DNA from: an uncultured Bacteroidales bacterium
GTDB lineage: Bacteria; Bacteroidota; Bacteroidia; Bacteroidales; JAADJA01
Direction: 5' to 3'
Assembly (NCBI GenBank): GCA_963749345.1
Contig: CAVVMO010000004.1
Span: 2,986,588 to 3,050,587, forward strand
Length of the DNA stretch: 64,000 nt
The notes below the pieces were generated by a model, which searched no databases, had not been told where the DNA came from, and saw only the letters and a program-made list of their open reading frames with translations. Position 1 is the first letter of the stretch. The number at the start of each line of letters is the position of its first letter. The position numbers were made by a program, and so were the translations under genes. This document shows, piece by piece, positions 559-62,559 of the stretch.

Positions 559-911
559 AATTTATCAAGCTAATTCGTTTGCGAAAAGCAATTCTATCTG
601 CTTATTTCGGGCCGCTCTTGACCAGGCAGGAATAATTAGATTCGATGGATAAATTTAATTCTACTTCAAATCAATCCTTACGCACAATATCCAGTCATTG
701 AATTAAGTTGTATCTTTGCATCGGTTTCAGCATTTGTTCTTTGAATCATTTTAAAGAAAAATGTTCAGGATGTAATTAACCTTAAACATTGAACTTTAAA
801 CCTGGAACCATTGACCGGGGCTGACCGGATTTGACAGCAAGGACAGTGGGACTGTAAGCATGCCGGGCATTGACGATGTGGCTCGTTAAAAACTATCTTC
901 AAACAATAATT

Positions 912-941
912 GGCGAAACTAATTACGCTCTTGCAGCTTAA
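912..941 (+). other. tmRNA tag reading frame, GETNYALAA-stop
   Basis: ggc gaa act aat tac gct ctt gca gct taa. The ...NYALAA ending is typical of Bacteroidota tags. Confidence 0.85.
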
Positions 942-1196
942 TCGAAGTAACAGTAGATCAGGCATTTCATGGCACAAGGTGCTGTGACAAGACATCCCGC
1001 AGGCGGACATGCCTGATTCCAACCTGACCGACGGGGTGCACGCAATTTTAGGCTGGTTCTGTAAGCGCCTTGATTACAGAATAAGATAAAAAGGATAAGA
1101 TGTTGTCTTGGGTGTCTTTTCCCGAGCAATATTCGAAAAACCAATAACTGGATAAGCATGTAGAAAGCACTTTTGCTGCTTGTTTGGACGAGGGTT

Positions 1197-1474
1197 CGAC
1201 GTCGGACCCATCCCGCAGGGATACGGGATTAAAAATCGGATGAATTGCTGGAACTCTTAACATGTAACGATGAAGACAATCAGCAGCCAAGCCTCAGACG
1301 CTTCTGAGGAAGGTTCAGAGACTACAGGGTGACATAGGAAGTCGTAATACCTGCATAGCGTCCGACACCTCGAACAGGTGATGATATAGTCCGATCCTTA
1401 AGGAAACTTAAGAAGAAAATCTTTATGAAGAGTTCAGATTAAAACTCGAGAAAGATTTTTTAATTAAAGGGATG
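1197..1474 (+). ncRNA. Group I intron (ORF-less, 278 nt) inserted in the tmRNA T-loop
   Basis: Classical conserved elements are present: P AATTGCTGGAA (1243-1253), Q AATCAGCAGCC (1278-1288), R GTTCAGAGACTACA (1313-1326), S ATGATATAGTCC (1381-1392). In P1, exon GGGTT (1192-1196) pairs with GACCC (1205-1209) with a U.G pair at the splice site. The intron ends in G1474. GTCG (1201-1204) can pair with 3'-exon CGAC (P10). Confidence 0.88.
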
Positions 1475-1508
1475 CGACTCCCTCCAGCTCCACGAATGAT
1501 ATTTGAAA

Positions 1509-1535
1509 GGCCAACCGAAAGGTTGGTTTTTTTTT
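1509..1535 (+). terminator. Rho-independent terminator after ssrA
   Basis: Stem CCAACC / GGTTGG with loop GAAA, followed by a T9 run (1527-1535). Confidence 0.75.
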
Positions 1536-1936: not shown

Positions 1937-4247
1937 CTATAGTACCACAATCTTTTTTGAAATGATTTGTGAACCAATGTTCACCTTTAACAGATAGATA
2001 CCTTTTGACAAATCTGCAATACTAAATGATTCGCTGAAGGTTCCATTTGTTTCAGTTCTGTTGAGTAATGATTTAATCATCTGCCCTTCCAGGTTGTAAA
2101 GTGCAATCGTCAGGTTTTGTGATGATCCAAGTTCAACCGAAACCGAAATCTTATCTTTTGCCGGGTTTGGCTGAACCTGCAGATCAAAATTATGGGCCAA
2201 TAAATTATCTTCAGTTCCTGATAACAGGTCGAATTTATAGATATCGAAACCTGCAGGACCATCGGAAACAAAGACATGTCCGGCGTCATAGGTTACATTC
2301 ACTGCAAAGCAGCCGCTTCGCTTGAAGAATCCTTCAACAAAAGGCATCAGAGAATTGGCAATGTTGATGACCTGCACGCCCTCATTGATATAATTCGCAA
2401 CAAAAGCATAATTCCCGAAGATATCAATTGCCCATGCTGCATCACCTAATTGAAGGTAGCTTTCTTCAGCCGGATTGGCTGGATCGATTACATTGATCAC
2501 ACCAAATCCACCTTCGATGTCGGCAAGGTACGCATACCCACCGGAAGCGTTTATGTCATAAGCTTTGCCGGTATAATTTGGTAATCGTGAAATAAATACC
2601 GGATTTACAGGATCGGTGATGTCAAAAATATAAACTCCTTTGGTATCTTCTGTTTCGGAAGACCCCCAATCTGCCAGGTAAAGGTAATTTCCCTCAATAT
2701 CCAGTGCCTGTACATAGCACCATTCAACTCCCGGAATACCGCCATTCACCCAGCCCATTTCGTGAGCCACTAAAACCGGGCTTTCTGGATTCGAGAAATC
2801 AACTACCCGGAAACCATCCCACCAGCAGGCAACAAATGCGTAATTGCCCTTCAGACTGATATCGTATGTCATGACAGGAGCCATGTAATGTGCAATATAT
2901 TCAGGGTTGGCAGGATCGGAAATGTCCATGATATTTACCTTGTTGTTGGCAGTCATACTTTTTCGGGCAGAATACCGCAATATCGCCGGATACTTTGACC
3001 AAATCTCCCGATGTTTGATGATAGCCCACTTGAACAGGATGATTTTTATCGCTGATATCATACACTCTGAATCCATTGCTGCCGGAATAGGCATAGTTAC
3101 CCGAAACAGCAACATCCCAGGTAGAAGAGGGCAAAGGATATGCACTTGCAACAATGGGCGCCGAAGGTTGTGTGACATCCAGAAAGAGACAACCCTCTGT
3201 ACCACCGGTAGCAAAAACGGTATTATTTTTCCCGGCAATGTAAGTCTGGAAACCGCTATAATCAGCAATATGTTGTGGTAAGCCCGGATTGCTTACATCA
3301 ATAACATTGACACCTCCACCCGGATTGGTGGTCGAATTGGCAATGTAGGCATAATTATTAAAAACGGTCAGGTTCCATGGAGTGCCGCTTTGCGCTATCT
3401 GCCCGGTTAGGGTAGGAGGGAGGGATGTGAAATCATAAATTTTCATACCAAAGGCATAATTTACGATGTAGGCCAGGCTGCCGGTCACGTGCACACTCGA
3501 TGAAGCTGTGGAAATGGTAAATGCATTGGTCAGCAAGGGCGAGGCTGAAAGATCGATGGCTTTGGTGCCGGCATTAGCACCAGCCACAAAAAGCGTATCG
3601 TCTCTCTTAAATGAATTCCAGACCAGCTGTGTTCCTGAAAAGTTATAGGTACCGACTTTGGCCGGATTTTGAGGATCAGAAACATTGAAGACATCTATTC
3701 CATCAACTACATTGGAAAGGTAAGCAAATTCAGGTGTTCCGGAAGCGCTATTGCGGAAATGTACACCTCCTCTGGGTAAGCCTGTGGCAGGCGCGCGCCC
3801 TAACCGCTGCGGGTTATAAATATCCGAAAGGTCCCAGACCTCAATCCCTGAAAAATAAGCGGCAAGGTAAAGCAAATGATTTACAGGGTCGTAGCTGATG
3901 CCATCCACAAGGGCTCTGGCAGAAATCTCCGAAAGCTTAACCGGATTGTAAGGATCGGTCGCATCAAAAATGATGACCCCTGCACCGGAACCTGCAAAAA
4001 CCGTATCTCCTGTCGGGCTGCACGAAACAGAAAAACTCTGCCCGAAACCCCAGTTGCCGGTAAAGGACATGTTCAGCGAATCGTAGTCGCTGATTTTCAA
4101 ATTTGAATTGTTAATTTCAATTGATTTTGAAATCTGATTTAAGCTACCTGATCGGGTAATGCTTTGTTTCACTAATTCATATTGACTTTGAGAAATTACG
4201 TTCAAAGCAATCATGAAAACCAGCAGGGATGTAAAGATCGTTTTCAT
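1937..4247 (-). pseudogene. LVIVD-repeat beta-propeller protein with T9SS C-terminal sorting domain; frame break around 2945-2985
   Basis: Signal peptide MKTIFTSLLVFMIALNVISQ. Repeated GNYAY(V/I)A...G(V/L)x(V/I)xD(V/I)S(N/D)P motifs. CTD ...GIYLLKVNIGSQIISKKIVVL. ORFs 2901..4247 and 1937..3268 are two frames of one gene; an A5/T5 run at 2959-2963 lies in the switch zone. Confidence 0.7.
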
Positions 4248-8593: not shown

Positions 8594-11109
8594 ATGAAAA
8601 AATTATTACTTATTACCTGCGGTTTAGCGATAGCGGCAGTAGTGGAAGCACAGATTATCCATGTGCCGGGCGATTATCCCACGATCCAGCAAGGGATTGA
8701 TGCTGCAAACACCGGCGATACCGTTTTGGTCGACCCGGGAACCTATCTGGAAAATATTTACCTCAATAAGAATATTACTCTTTCCTCACTTTACCTGACC
8801 ACTCTGGATACTTCCTTTATATCTCAAACCATCATTGATGGGTGTCATATTAGCCATGTAATAAATATAGTATTTCCTGTTGATACAAATTGCTTTATTA
8901 CAGGTTTTACGATCACAAATGGATATACTGAATATTTGGGTGCCGGAATTATCTGTTCGGGGGCATCCCCTGTACTAAGTTACCTGGTCATTAAGAATAA
9001 TCACGCAGAATATGGGTATATGAGTTATGATGGCGATGGTGGTGGTATTGGATGCGGTATTTATAGTATTACTCCAGGGGGATATACATATTCCTTTCCA
9101 AGGATAAGACATGTCGAAATTTCGGGTAATACTTCTGATGGAGCTGGTGGCGGATTGTACGCCGGTGGAGGTCATACCTATATGGAAGATGTAACATTCC
9201 ATGACAATAGCGGTGGCTGGAACGGAGGTGCAATATATATAGCCATAGGAGATGTTGGCGGTCTTAGCATGAAAAATATTAAAGTGTTTAATAATATTTC
9301 TTATGGAAGCATCATTCACTTGCTTTTTTTGGGATGAAACTTGCAATATCAATTGAGAATGTGACCGTTAATGATAATTCTGGAAATGCTTTTATTATGG
9401 ATACTTATGATGAACCAGGTAGTTTAAATTTGAACCATGTTATTCTTGAAAACAATGCCGGATTCGGATTGCAGTCAAATGGGGTAAACCTGAATTTAAG
9501 CGATGTGAGCATTCATAATAATGCAGGAGGTCTTATCAACGATGACGGAGAGATTGTTTTTGATACCCTTGAGCGATGCAGCATTTATAATAATTTTATT
9601 GGTTACAATAAGGAAATTGCAAGCAATGTTCCGATAGAGGTAGTGCTCGATACCTTTACGGTTCTCAATCCTACTTCATTTCATGTTGATACGCTGCCGA
9701 ACTTTTCATTCGACATTTTGCACGGATTATACGGGCAGATAAACGCTGACGTTTATGTTTCGCCTTCGGGTGATGATTTTAATAGCGGAATCACTCCTAA
9801 TGAACCGTTAAAAAGGATTGTTTGCGCTCAGGCAAGATTGCTCAGCCCCCATACAATTTATCTTGCCGGTGGCAACTACAGTTCATTATTGACAGGTGAA
9901 AATTTTCCCGTCATGTTATTGGATAGCCTCAACCTGATCGGTGTGTCTTCATCTGATGTGGTGATGGACGGTTCAGGGAATACTCTTTTGAAAATCAAAA
10001 ATAACAGCTATAATAACGTGTCAGGATTAACATTAACGGGCGGGGAACGTGGCATCTGGATAGAGAATTCAAATCCTTCGATTGAAGATGTTCATATAAC
10101 AAATAATTCCAATCAGTATAAAGGTGGAGGAATATATTCAACTGGTTCTAATCCAATTCTAAAGGACATTTTTCTTGAAGGAAATTCAGCGACTAATGGA
10201 GGCGGACTTTACTTTACCGAATCATTACCAACGCTGCGTAACCTCACAATAAAAGAAAATTCGGCAGATTGCGGTGGAGGAATATACTTTTTCGGATCCG
10301 ATCCATTCATTATGAACCTAAATATAATTCAGAATACGGCGTATAAGGGCGGGGGTATCTTTTTTAATAATTCTGATCCGTTTATCTGTAATTCAATCCT
10401 GGCTGATAATATTGCTACCAATTGGGGAGGAGGTATTTGCGGAGGAGGCGGATCATATATTCGGTTATCAAATTCAATTTTATGGAATAACGATGTTAAT
10501 CAAATTGCCCTCGTTGGAATTTATGGTGGTATAAATACTATAGAAATATCTTATTCAGATATCGAAGGTGGTGAAGAAGGGATTTATATATCAGGCACAG
10601 GGGCGGTAAACTGGCTGGAAGGCAATATGGTTGAAAATCCTCTCTTTGCAGTAAGCGGAGAACATCCATATGCCTTATCAGATGGATCACCATGCATCGA
10701 TGCTGGTATACCAGATACCACAGGCCTGAACCTTCCTTGCGAGGATATCATAGGTAATAAGCGTATCTGGGATGGAGACGGGAATGGAATCGCGGTTGTG
10801 GATATGGGAGCTTATGAGTTTGGATCGATACCGGTGGGAGTGAAAGAACCTCAAATATCAGTTCAGAGCCCGGAGTTTGAAGTTCGATGTTATCCAAATC
10901 CAACTCATAATAAAATAACCATTGAGTTATCTGCAATAACCAGTATTACCCAACTTTCAATATTCAATGTTAACGGCAAGAAAGTATTGGAAAGGCAGCT
11001 AACAGATAACGAAACCCAACTCGACATCAGCGCACTGCCACGGGGAGTGTATTTTGTGAGGGTGCAGGATGAGAAGAAAGTAGAAGTTGTAAAAATGATA
11101 AAACAATAA
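8594..11109 (+). pseudogene. Right-handed beta-helix (pectate-lyase-fold-like) repeat protein with T9SS CTD; frame break at a T7 tract
   Basis: ORFs 8585..9337 and 9334..11109 are joined if T7 (9324-9330) is read as T8: ...SIIHLLFFGMKLAISIENV. GGGIY/GGGLY repeats. CTD LSIFNVNGKKVLERQL...GVYFVRVQDEKKVEVVKMIKQ. The likely start is ATG 8594 (MKKLLLITCGLAIAA). Confidence 0.75.
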
Positions 11110-61866: not shown

Positions 61867-61942
61867 ACTGGTTTGAAACCGGAATAGATTTTTAATATTT
61901 TTGCAGAATCTATTGCGGGAATATCCGTCAAGTGCCGGACAG

Positions 61943-61988
61943 GGCTCAGTTGGTAGTCCCGCCTTTGGCGGGATACCAAGCTAAGGGT
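61943..61988 (+). pseudogene. Truncated tRNA-derived unit (unit 0)
   Basis: GGCTCAGTTGGTA-G-TCCCGCCTTTGGCGGGA-TACCAAGCTAAGGGT. A D-loop fragment, an acceptor-like hairpin and a degenerate anticodon-arm 3' part. Confidence 0.6.
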
Positions 61989-62000
61989 AATAGATTTAAA

Positions 62001-62073
62001 GCGGGAATAGCTCAGTTGGTAGAGCATTAGCTTCCCAAGCTGAGGGTCGCGGGTTCGAGTCCCGTTTCCCGCT
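62001..62073 (+). tRNA. tRNA-Gly (anticodon CCC)
   Basis: Hand-folded 73-nt cloverleaf: GCGGGAA/TTCCCGC acceptor, GCTC-AGTTGGTA-GAGC, TTAGC-TTCCCAA-GCTGA, variable loop GGGTC, GCGGG-TTCGAGT-CCCGT, discriminator U. Confidence 0.9.
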
Positions 62074-62086
62074 CAAAAGAATAAAA

Positions 62087-62112
62087 GGCTTACAATGATG
62101 TAGGCCTTTTTT
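62087..62112 (+). terminator. Rho-independent terminator after tRNA-Gly
   Basis: GGCTTACA-ATGA-TGTAGGCC plus T6. Repeated after units 1 and 2 (62210-62235 and 62336-62361). Confidence 0.7.
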
Positions 62113-62122
62113 GTTTTTCCCA

Positions 62123-62194
62123 GGCTCAGTTGGTAGTCCCGCCATGGCGGGATCCCAAGGTGAGGGTCGCGGGTTCGAGTCCCGTTTCCCGCTC
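62123..62194 (+). pseudogene. tRNA-Gly-derived pseudo-unit 1
   Basis: GGCTCAGTTGGTA-G-TCCCGCCATGGCGGGA-TCCCAAGGTGAGGGTCGCGGGTTCGAGTCCCGTTTCCCGCTC. No 5' acceptor strand, and the D-stem 3' half and anticodon-stem 5' half are replaced by a hairpin. Confidence 0.75.
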
Positions 62195-62251
62195 AAAATT
62201 GGAAAGAAAGGCTTACAATGATGTAGGCCTTTTTTGTTTTTTCCCTATGCC

Positions 62252-62320
62252 CAGGTGGTAGTCCCGCCTTTGGCGGGATCCCAAGCTGAGGGTCGCGGGT
62301 TCGAGTCCCGTTTCCCGCTC
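62252..62320 (+). pseudogene. tRNA-Gly-derived pseudo-unit 2
   Basis: CAGGTGGTAGTCCCGCCTTTGGCGGGATCCCAAGCTGAGGGTC... with a 3' 42 nt identical to the tRNA. 126-bp period to unit 3. Confidence 0.75.
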
Positions 62321-62377
62321 AAAATTGGAAAGAAAGGCTTACAATGATGTAGGCCTTTTTTGTTTTTTCCCTATGCC

Positions 62378-62446
62378 CAGGTGGTAGTCCCGCCTTTGGC
62401 GGGATCCCAAGCTGAGGGTCGCGGGTTCGAGTCCCGTTTCCCGCTC
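62378..62446 (+). pseudogene. tRNA-Gly-derived pseudo-unit 3
   Basis: Identical to unit 2 over the tRNA-like part. Followed by a different terminator (62459-62487). Confidence 0.75.
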
Positions 62447-62487
62447 AAAAGAAAAGAAAGATCTGTTTAATGACAGGTCTTTTTTTG

Positions 62488-62559
62488 CTCAGTTGTTAGT
62501 CCCGCCTTTGGCGGGATCCCAAGCTGAGGGTCGTCCCGCTGAGGCGGGATTTCCCGCTC
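62488..62559 (+). pseudogene. tRNA-Gly-derived pseudo-unit 4 (T arm also replaced)
   Basis: ...TCCCGCCTTTGGCGGGATCCCAAGCTGAGGGTC-GTCCCGCTGAGGCGGGAT-TTCCCGCTC. A second TCCCGC/GCGGGA hairpin sits where the T arm should be. Terminator at 62573-62600. Confidence 0.7.

Follow-up and report, generated by a model that had tools for sequence, protein, structure and literature searches.

The stretch of DNA analysed here (64 kb in all, hereafter the window) carries on its forward strand a tmRNA gene, ssrA, in two exons separated by 278 nt. Analysis of the sequence confirms that the gene is interrupted in its T-loop by a group I intron, a real but rare arrangement. The gene and its neighbourhood comprise the following features.

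711..718, forward strand: possible promoter -7 motif TAnnTTTG, TATCTTTG, from a motif search, about 100 nt upstream of the mature 5′ end
817..1196, forward strand: tmRNA exon 1, 380 nt (Rfam RF00023, 113.8 bits; ARAGORN on the spliced sequence)
912..941, forward strand: tag reading frame GETNYALAA and stop (ARAGORN)
1197..1474, forward strand: group I intron, 278 nt, without ORF (RF00028, in-silico splicing, covariation, search for ORFs and homing-endonuclease genes, HEGs)
1475..1493, forward strand: tmRNA exon 2 (ARAGORN; acceptor stem including G3·U70 read directly from the sequence)
1505..1535, forward strand: intrinsic terminator, a GC-rich hairpin followed by nine U (RNAfold, -15.2 kcal/mol)

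The interrupted tmRNA gene

Exon 1 begins with GGGGCTGACCGG at 817 and ends with GTTTGGACGAGGGTT at 1196. It contains the 5′ acceptor strand GGGGCUG, the tag region, the pseudoknots, the 5′ strand of the T-stem (GAGGG) and the first two nucleotides of the T-loop (UU). Its tag is that of Bacteroides fragilis and B. thetaiotaomicron, an identity reported by ARAGORN; together with seven window proteins carrying T9SS C-terminal sorting domains (20 ORFs scanned), it points to the phylum Bacteroidota. Exon 2 supplies nucleotides 3–7 of the T-loop (CGACU), the 3′ strand of the T-stem (CCCUC), the 3′ acceptor strand CAGCUCC, the discriminator A and one C. Its sequence at 1475–1492, CGACTCCCTCCAGCTCCA, occurs only once in the 64-kb window. 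Since the CCA is only partly encoded (…CUCCA-CGA), 3′ trimming and CCA addition would be needed. The exon strings and coordinates given by a sequence-only reading of this DNA (start at 817, tag at 912–941, end at 1196, 3′ end at 1475–1492) were all found in the sequence.

Run on the unspliced genomic sequence, ARAGORN called no tmRNA. The RF00023 match (824–1217, E 9e-45, cut-off 47) covers the overall sequence and structure of a tmRNA, including the pseudoknot region, despite the missing 3′ end: its alignment stops in the T arm, without the 3′ acceptor strand. Once 1197–1474 had been deleted in silico, ARAGORN called a 399-nt tmRNA starting at 817 with the tag GETNYALAA. The tRNA-like domain appears only after this deletion, with a 7-bp acceptor stem GGGGCUG/CAGCUCC containing G3·U70 and a T arm GAGGG-UUCGACU-CCCUC with its 7-nt loop. 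The predicted ligated junction is GAGGGUUCGACUCCCUC, the exon joint reading GAGGGUU-CGACUCCCUC. Joining 1196 to 1475 thus restores the T arm and acceptor stem, as had been proposed, and places the insertion between nucleotides 2 and 3 of the T-loop (GAGGG-UU|CGACU-CCCUC).

The exact junction is ambiguous at the level of the product: CGAC stands at both boundaries, and the five junctions from 1196/1475 to 1200/1479 consequently yield an identical mature RNA. Only 1196/1475 has both a U at position -1 and a terminal guanosine (omega-G), and this junction also has a 4-bp P10. The Rfam group I model RF00028 matches 1152–1413 with 90.2 bits (cut-off 50, E 7e-23). Its start within the exon reflects the loosely defined P1/P2 of the model, which is pushed onto an exon helix; the corresponding pairs are flagged as non-canonical in the alignment. 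The catalytic core P3–P9 lies wholly inside 1197–1474, so that the match is compatible with the proposed boundaries. Both Rfam models score above their cut-offs here.

Elsewhere in the window, Rfam recognised one other structured RNA, a tRNA-Gly. Neither a second tmRNA 3′ end nor an intron-free copy of ssrA was found within the 64 kb, and none of the 20 window ORFs scanned encodes SmpB. TAnnTTTG is what we take to be the Bacteroides promoter consensus, and the motif at 711–718 might tentatively be regarded as the ssrA promoter. A sigma-70 promoter scan gave nothing above chance. The hairpin and U9 at 1505–1535 sit immediately 3′ of exon 2 and were not flagged by a consensus terminator scanner.

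Anatomy of the intron

The P1–P9 structure was drawn by hand and its 66 pairs were checked against the window sequence: all are standard pairs. The elements are listed below with their behaviour in the alignments of homologous introns described in the next section.

1192..1209, forward strand: P1, exon GGGUU (1192–1196) with GACCC (1205–1209), loop CGACGUCG; paired in 10/10 sequences
1201–1204 with 1475–1478, forward strand: P10, guide GUCG with exon-2 CGAC; the guide lies immediately 5′ of G1205
1210..1229, forward strand: P2 hairpin AUCCCG/CGGGAU; compensatory changes at 5/6 pairs, 98% of cells pair
1236..1365, forward strand: P3, long-range helix 1236–1242/1359–1365; compensatory changes at 5/7 pairs
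1246–1251/1280–1285, forward strand: P4; compensatory changes at 4/6 pairs
1255–1276, forward strand: P5, within P3
1286–1314, forward strand: P6; compensatory changes at 5/7 stem pairs
1318..1392, forward strand: P7, 1318 and 1320–1324 with 1387–1392, A1319 bulged; invariant, paired in 10/10, high Rfam posterior probability
1325–1353, forward strand: P7.1 hairpin (five-sequence alignment)
1366–1380, forward strand: P8, enclosed by P7
1397..1412, forward strand: P9 hairpin with a GAAA tetraloop; compensatory changes at 5/6 pairs, GAAA invariant in the alignment
1413..1474, forward strand: post-P9 tail, 62 nt, ending in the omega-G at 1474; fold of about -12.4 kcal/mol

P3 encloses P4, P5, P6, the 5′ strand of P7 and the P7.1 hairpin. 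P7 corresponds to the conserved R/S core and forms with P3 the usual pseudoknotted core; in group I introns P7 holds the guanosine-binding site. The P, Q, R and S elements are present where the sequence-only reading had placed them (1243–1253, 1278–1288, 1313–1326 and 1381–1392). So is the P1 helix with its wobble at the 5′ splice site: U1196·G1205 is U·G in 10/10 homologues. One extra hairpin lies between P7 and P3′ (1325–1353); subgroup IA is marked by extra helices P7.1/P7.2 there. Beyond P9, the tail (1413–1474) forms its own hairpin, AAAAUCUUU/AAAGAUUUU.

Related introns, covariation and the endonuclease gene

Nine related introns were obtained from metagenome contigs, all at the same T-loop site as that of the window. 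A tolerant pattern scan of metagenome contigs picked out three further tmRNA genes carrying such an intron: L020, a close relative with the same tag; L017, with the tag GEDSYAMAA; and L013, which is more distant. A scan of genome contigs with the narrow pattern GGACGNGGGTTNNNNGTCGGACCC gave 10 chance matches, none with a tmRNA or an intron. Intron-free tmRNAs were recovered in the same metagenome scan: for example L014, with the tag GETRYALAA, the T-loop UUCGAGA and 74% identity to the spliced window gene.

The introns of L017 and L020 carry after P9 an ORF of the LAGLIDADG type opening with MNW(N/D)YISGFFDADGS. A search with a 46-aa HEG fragment returned two truncated matches only, on contigs of 516 and 607 bp, and yielded L021. 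A full-library phmmer search returned 62 single-motif LAGLIDADG proteins, mostly of about 130–145 aa, whose contigs led to L024, L025, L026, L030-32 and L033; in each of these a group I core immediately precedes the ORF. A further HEG candidate (P0021, L027-29) had been read as running into a tmRNA exon (…FFATPDSST…); this reading was rejected and the candidate left uncounted, since the ORF adjoins a complete tRNA and its contig is from a phage. That contig, starting at the ORF, shows no intron core. The sequence GGGUU|…GACCC is common to 9/9 relatives. The 3′ end can be read in five of them: four have the boundary G|CGA(A/C/U), and the fifth, L013, lacks that G. These common boundary sequences place all nine relatives at the same T-loop position.

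To examine the fold, the hand-drawn pairs were counted on an ordinary MAFFT alignment of ten homologous introns that had been made without any fitting to that structure. In this alignment 96.1% of the cells in the P1–P9 structure pair, and 27 of 54 pairs change on both sides. The cells changed on both sides number 95, compared to 28.5±4.1 in shuffles and to 1–13 when the 3′ partners are slid by 1–3 columns. P2, P3, P4, P6, P8 and P9 each contain several compensatory pairs, while P1 and P7 are invariant and always paired. A five-sequence test including P7.1 agrees with the ten-sequence result.

P10 extends the covariation into the exons: in six loci (L030 being read by hand), the guide covaries with the first 4–6 nt of the 3′ exon, as follows.

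Window: guide GUCG, 3′ exon CGAC
L025: guide GAUUCG, 3′ exon CGAAUC
L026: guide GGUUUG, 3′ exon CGAACC
L024: guide GAGUUG, 3′ exon CGACUC
L030: guide GAUCG, 3′ exon CGAUC
L013: guide GUUCG, 3′ exon CGAAU

Five of the six loci have the omega-G, L013 appearing to have lost it. The terminal G1474 and the GUCG/CGAC pairing that had been read from the window alone are both present. P10 covariation, together with the independence of the contigs, excludes chance and an assembly chimera as explanations, and speaks for splicing being under selection in these introns. Foreign DNA inserted chimerically into the ssrA contig during assembly could account for the 4-nt repeat CGAC flanking the 278 nt, but we regard such an artefact as exceedingly improbable: the insert holds an internal guide sequence complementary to both exons of the same gene, and nine other contigs, from unrelated samples, carry homologous introns at the same phosphodiester bond. 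The GC content is also unremarkable (intron 43%, exons 47%, window 41%).

The window and L020 share 93.5% identity in the intron core and 84.3% in exon 1. A core more conserved than its exon would fit a recent horizontal movement of the intron, without being decisive; the pseudoknot regions of tmRNA evolve quickly.

No endonuclease gene accompanies the window intron, as the sequence-only reading had stated. The ORF search found no ORF in it, and tblastn gave noise-level matches only, with no similarity to LAGLIDADG proteins in the intron or elsewhere in the 64-kb window. L013 likewise has no LAGLIDADG ORF, while 8/9 relatives (L017, L020, L021, L024, L025, L026, L030 and L033) have one after P9. 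In these relatives the ORF reaches the 3′ splice site or continues past it; the omega-G of L025 is supplied by the TAG stop of its ORF. At the DNA level the window tail resembles the last ~47–50 nt of the L030 HEG ORF (…EDLKKFDKLDKEFFDF*), with a score of 19 against a null mean of 10 (p~0.001, mononucleotide shuffles), and its frame 2 still reads ENLYEEFRLKLEKDFLIK. The alignment consists of one short AT-rich match, and two of four comparisons with the 3′ ends of the relatives' introns reach p<0.05. The tail at 1413–1474 thus probably descends from the 3′ end of a LAGLIDADG gene that was deleted, the similarity being suggestive only, and it is likely, with the same suggestive support, that the endonuclease gene was deleted from this intron. 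The DNA-level alignment to L030 and the reading in frame +2 together replaced an earlier reading of the tail in frame +1 as IKTRERFFN*.

Outside the window, the intron of L024, L026 and L030-32 sits in the acceptor piece of circularly permuted tmRNA genes. This permuted-plus-intron form is absent from the gene forms in Table 3 of PMC11915505 and was not found by a literature search; searches of phage genomes with these loci matched the generic intron core only. The occurrence of the family in permuted tmRNA genes is a more interesting lead than the window locus itself. A broader history can be drawn from these loci, to which we give slightly less than an even chance: the window intron would come from a mobile lineage of LAGLIDADG introns, with its own endonuclease recently deleted. 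This lineage would home to the near-universal T-arm sequence GGGUU^CGA, would have spread horizontally among Bacteroidia, in which the intron core is better conserved than the host gene, and would also have entered circularly permuted two-piece tmRNA genes.

Published tmRNA introns and the proposed splicing pathway

T-loop introns of tmRNA have been surveyed in PMC11915505 (NAR Genomics and Bioinformatics 2025), which lists 883 unique intron-form tmRNA sequences. All are in the T-loop, at internucleotide positions 2, 3, 7 and 8, and the different subsites are interpreted there as separate invasion events. An intron between loop nucleotides 2 and 3 falls at position 3 of this survey; the numbering was cross-checked with the C. 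botulinum intron, whose 5′ exon ends in CGAU and which is at position 7. The position-3 introns all come from the class Bacteroidia. Among 29,415 Bacteroidota genomes (Supplementary Table 2 of PMC11915505), 9 introns are at position 3, 3 at position 7 and 14 at position 8. The sequence-only reading implied that such an intron was new in Bacteroidota; this does not stand, since the survey already reports T-loop introns there at positions 3, 7 and 8. The window intron has the same site in a standard tmRNA gene, the -1U, the omega-G and the Bacteroidota host in common with the published position-3 class, from which it shows no substantive difference. Its 278 nt are also near the 293-nt mean of the founding set of PMC11915505, where the P7.1 region is named in tmRNA introns and a few HEGs are noted after P9. 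The window locus is thus an instance of an already described, rare class, found in about 0.03% of Bacteroidota genomes.

Self-splicing of the 287-nt C. botulinum tmRNA intron had been demonstrated earlier, according to PMC2729099. This intron (Williams 2002, cited in PMC11915505 and PMC2729099) resembles the window intron in lacking a HEG, in its T-loop location and in its length of about 280–290 nt; it differs in host and site, being in Bacillota at T-loop position 7 (5′ exon …CGAU), whereas the window intron is in Bacteroidota at position 3. Position 7, this original site, is now known in 21 phyla (PMC11915505). Over the P3–P9 core, the window intron shares 72–75% nucleotide identity with phage group I introns (among them those in psbA of Synechococcus phage S-PM2 and in the split terminase gene of a Vibrio phage), which makes it an ordinary bacterial/phage type. 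Those phage introns interrupt protein-coding genes, and their likeness to the window intron is limited to the catalytic core. The C. botulinum intron is, we assume, assigned to subgroup IA3. The bacterial group I introns of tRNA anticodon loops are likewise small, reside in a tRNA-shaped RNA and are mapped by the same -1U/omega-G rules; they differ in that tmRNA has no anticodon loop, its introns lying in the T-loop.

From established group I chemistry, we infer the following pathway for the window gene, with its splicing activity and its processing steps. A single precursor would be transcribed from about 720–817 to the terminator at 1505–1535, and its intron would fold into P1–P9. An external guanosine would attack after U1196, held in the P1 U·G wobble; P10 (GUCG with CGAC) would then align the 3′ exon, and the freed 3′-OH of U1196 would attack after the omega-G at 1474, ligating the exons. 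Ligation would restore a T-loop of 7 nt (UUCGACU), together with an acceptor stem, GGGGCUG/CAGCUCC, that contains G3·U70. RNase P, 3′ trimming and CCA addition would finally give a tmRNA chargeable with alanine.

Two other fates of the transcript were weighed against this pathway. The intron could be decayed and splicing-dead, ssrA being a pseudogene and rescue being provided by another ssrA or by alternative factors elsewhere in the genome. The absence of the endonuclease is what is expected late in the life of a homing intron, and the apparent loss of the omega-G in L013 indicates that damaged copies exist. Such decay is nevertheless hard to reconcile with the window intron, whose core helices are all intact and fully paired and in which P7, the -1U·G, the omega-G and P10 are all present. 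Joining the exons, moreover, yields a whole tmRNA in which the tag frame is open and G3·U70 is present, the window contains no second tmRNA 3′ end, and the identities to L020 (core 93.5%, exon 84.3%) are unlike those of decaying sequence. We therefore consider a dead intron improbable, to be given only a small weight.

Alternatively, the precursor might be cut at the intron boundaries and the exons left unligated, since two-piece tmRNAs are functional in other lineages (PMC11915505) and relatives of the window intron occur in permuted genes. Here, though, the gene order is standard and not permuted, and a break in the T-loop would destroy the fold of that loop, and exon 2 would then be attached through nothing more than the T stem (5 bp) and the acceptor stem (7 bp); the covarying P10 is, in addition, precisely the element that aligns exons for ligation. 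An unligated product appears very improbable, even more so than a dead intron, if somewhat less so than the assembly artefact considered above.

We thus favour with high confidence the reading in which the window holds a one-piece Bacteroidota ssrA, split between T-loop nucleotides 2 and 3 by a bacterial/phage-type group I intron, in which the precursor self-splices and the LAGLIDADG endonuclease of the lineage was most likely lost by deletion.

A compact, HEG-less intron of 278 nt with close HEG-bearing relatives is useful for following the cycle of endonuclease gain and loss. This ssrA is missed (ARAGORN) or shortened (Rfam) by the standard finders, so that the genome would seem to be devoid of trans-translation. 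With no intron-free copy within the 64-kb window, trans-translation from this gene would depend on splicing: rescue from the gene would hinge on the ribozyme reaction, a dependence on record for Clostridium since 2002 and, at this very site, for Bacteroidia since 2025.

Group I introns inside circularly permuted tmRNA genes

In three metagenome contigs, L024, L026 and L030, the tmRNA gene is circularly permuted (two-piece), and its acceptor piece holds the group I intron known from the window, again at position 3 of the T-loop but here carrying a homing endonuclease gene (HEG). In all three, the intron-bearing 3′ tRNA domain is upstream and the 5′ domain downstream. The first 7 nt of the 5′ domain pair with the 3′ tRNA domain, G3·U70 included, and a tag ORF is found downstream.

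Permuted tmRNA loci with an intron: coordinates, acceptor pairing, tag ORF
L024:2672-3700; GGGGAUG/CAUCUCC; DKTITHNFAQVRLAA
L026:1690-2620; GGGGACG/CGUCUCC; GKVINLNAFAAPVQAAA
L030:618-1900; GGGGCCG/CGGCUCC; GNVIKHNFNTVARVAA

ARAGORN returned a ‘Permuted’ call for L024 and L030 only once the introns had been spliced in silico. This combined form is absent from the gene forms of Table 3 in the 2025 tmRNA survey (PMC11915505), and neither a literature search nor a search of phage genomes returned an instance of it. The intron core of L030 is also that of two further contigs, L031 and L032. As to surroundings, the L026 locus adjoins dnaE on a 101-kb contig, and the L024 contig looks phage-like.

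Non-permuted loci and the neighbourhood in the window

In L015 (4446-8337; also L012 and L016), two full-length standard tmRNA genes are spaced about 1.4 kb apart in L015, and some 2 kb downstream the 3′ part of tmRNA is matched once more. This arrangement looks like a tandem duplication or repeated integration of an island at ssrA. In L014, a c4-2 antisense RNA (8912-8989, Rfam RF02944, 64.8 bits), which may be prophage-related, lies about 900 nt upstream of an intron-free tmRNA gene of the Bacteroidia type.

Far from the tmRNA, the window carries, within 61940-62520, a tRNA gene followed by a tandem array.

Features at the window's tRNA-Gly
62001-62074: tRNA-Gly(CCC)
After the tRNA: tandem array, 126-nt unit, 3.4 copies, with partial unit copies on both sides

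Every unit comprises a terminator and a degenerate tRNA-like copy in which a remnant of the D-loop survives, a hairpin (TCCCGCC-ttt-GGCGGGA) takes the place of the anticodon arm, and both the T arm and the 3′ acceptor strand are intact; neither ARAGORN nor Rfam called a tRNA in these copies.

At 1.9-18.6 kb and 52.8-57.9 kb, the window encodes a dense cluster of large secreted proteins, each bearing a C-terminal T9SS sorting domain, with LVIVD, receptor-L/LRR, beta-helix, FG-GAP and BNR repeats among them; the contig is therefore assigned to Bacteroidota. On the minus strand at 1937-4247, two long LVIVD-repeat ORFs (1937-3268 and 2901-4247) lie in different frames and share about 370 nt. Only the downstream ORF carries the T9SS sorting domain, and the two are probably a single gene that a frameshift or sequencing error has divided.

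Variation and possible spread of the T-loop intron

A divergent tmRNA in L013 (tag ANATVGHFVTEGATVAA) contains a related 221-nt intron (region 750-1000) devoid of HEG. Because of the P10 pairing (GUUCG/CGAAU) and the required 7-nt T-loop, its 3′ splice site was placed after an A (…AAUUUA|CGAAUCCC), whereas all five of the other complete loci have G at this position. Either a lost omega-G or an error in the contig could account for the missing G.

In L033, a contig of 1155 bp (Logan SRR17886269), the LAGLIDADG ORF (P0005) follows P9 but is antisense to the intron and tmRNA, unlike the other loci, where it is on the same strand.

The relative in L020 has an endonuclease ORF, whereas the window intron has none. 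Across window positions 817-1412, identity to L020 is higher in the intron core (93.5%) than in the host gene (84.3%), a sequence difference compatible with recent lateral spread of the intron.
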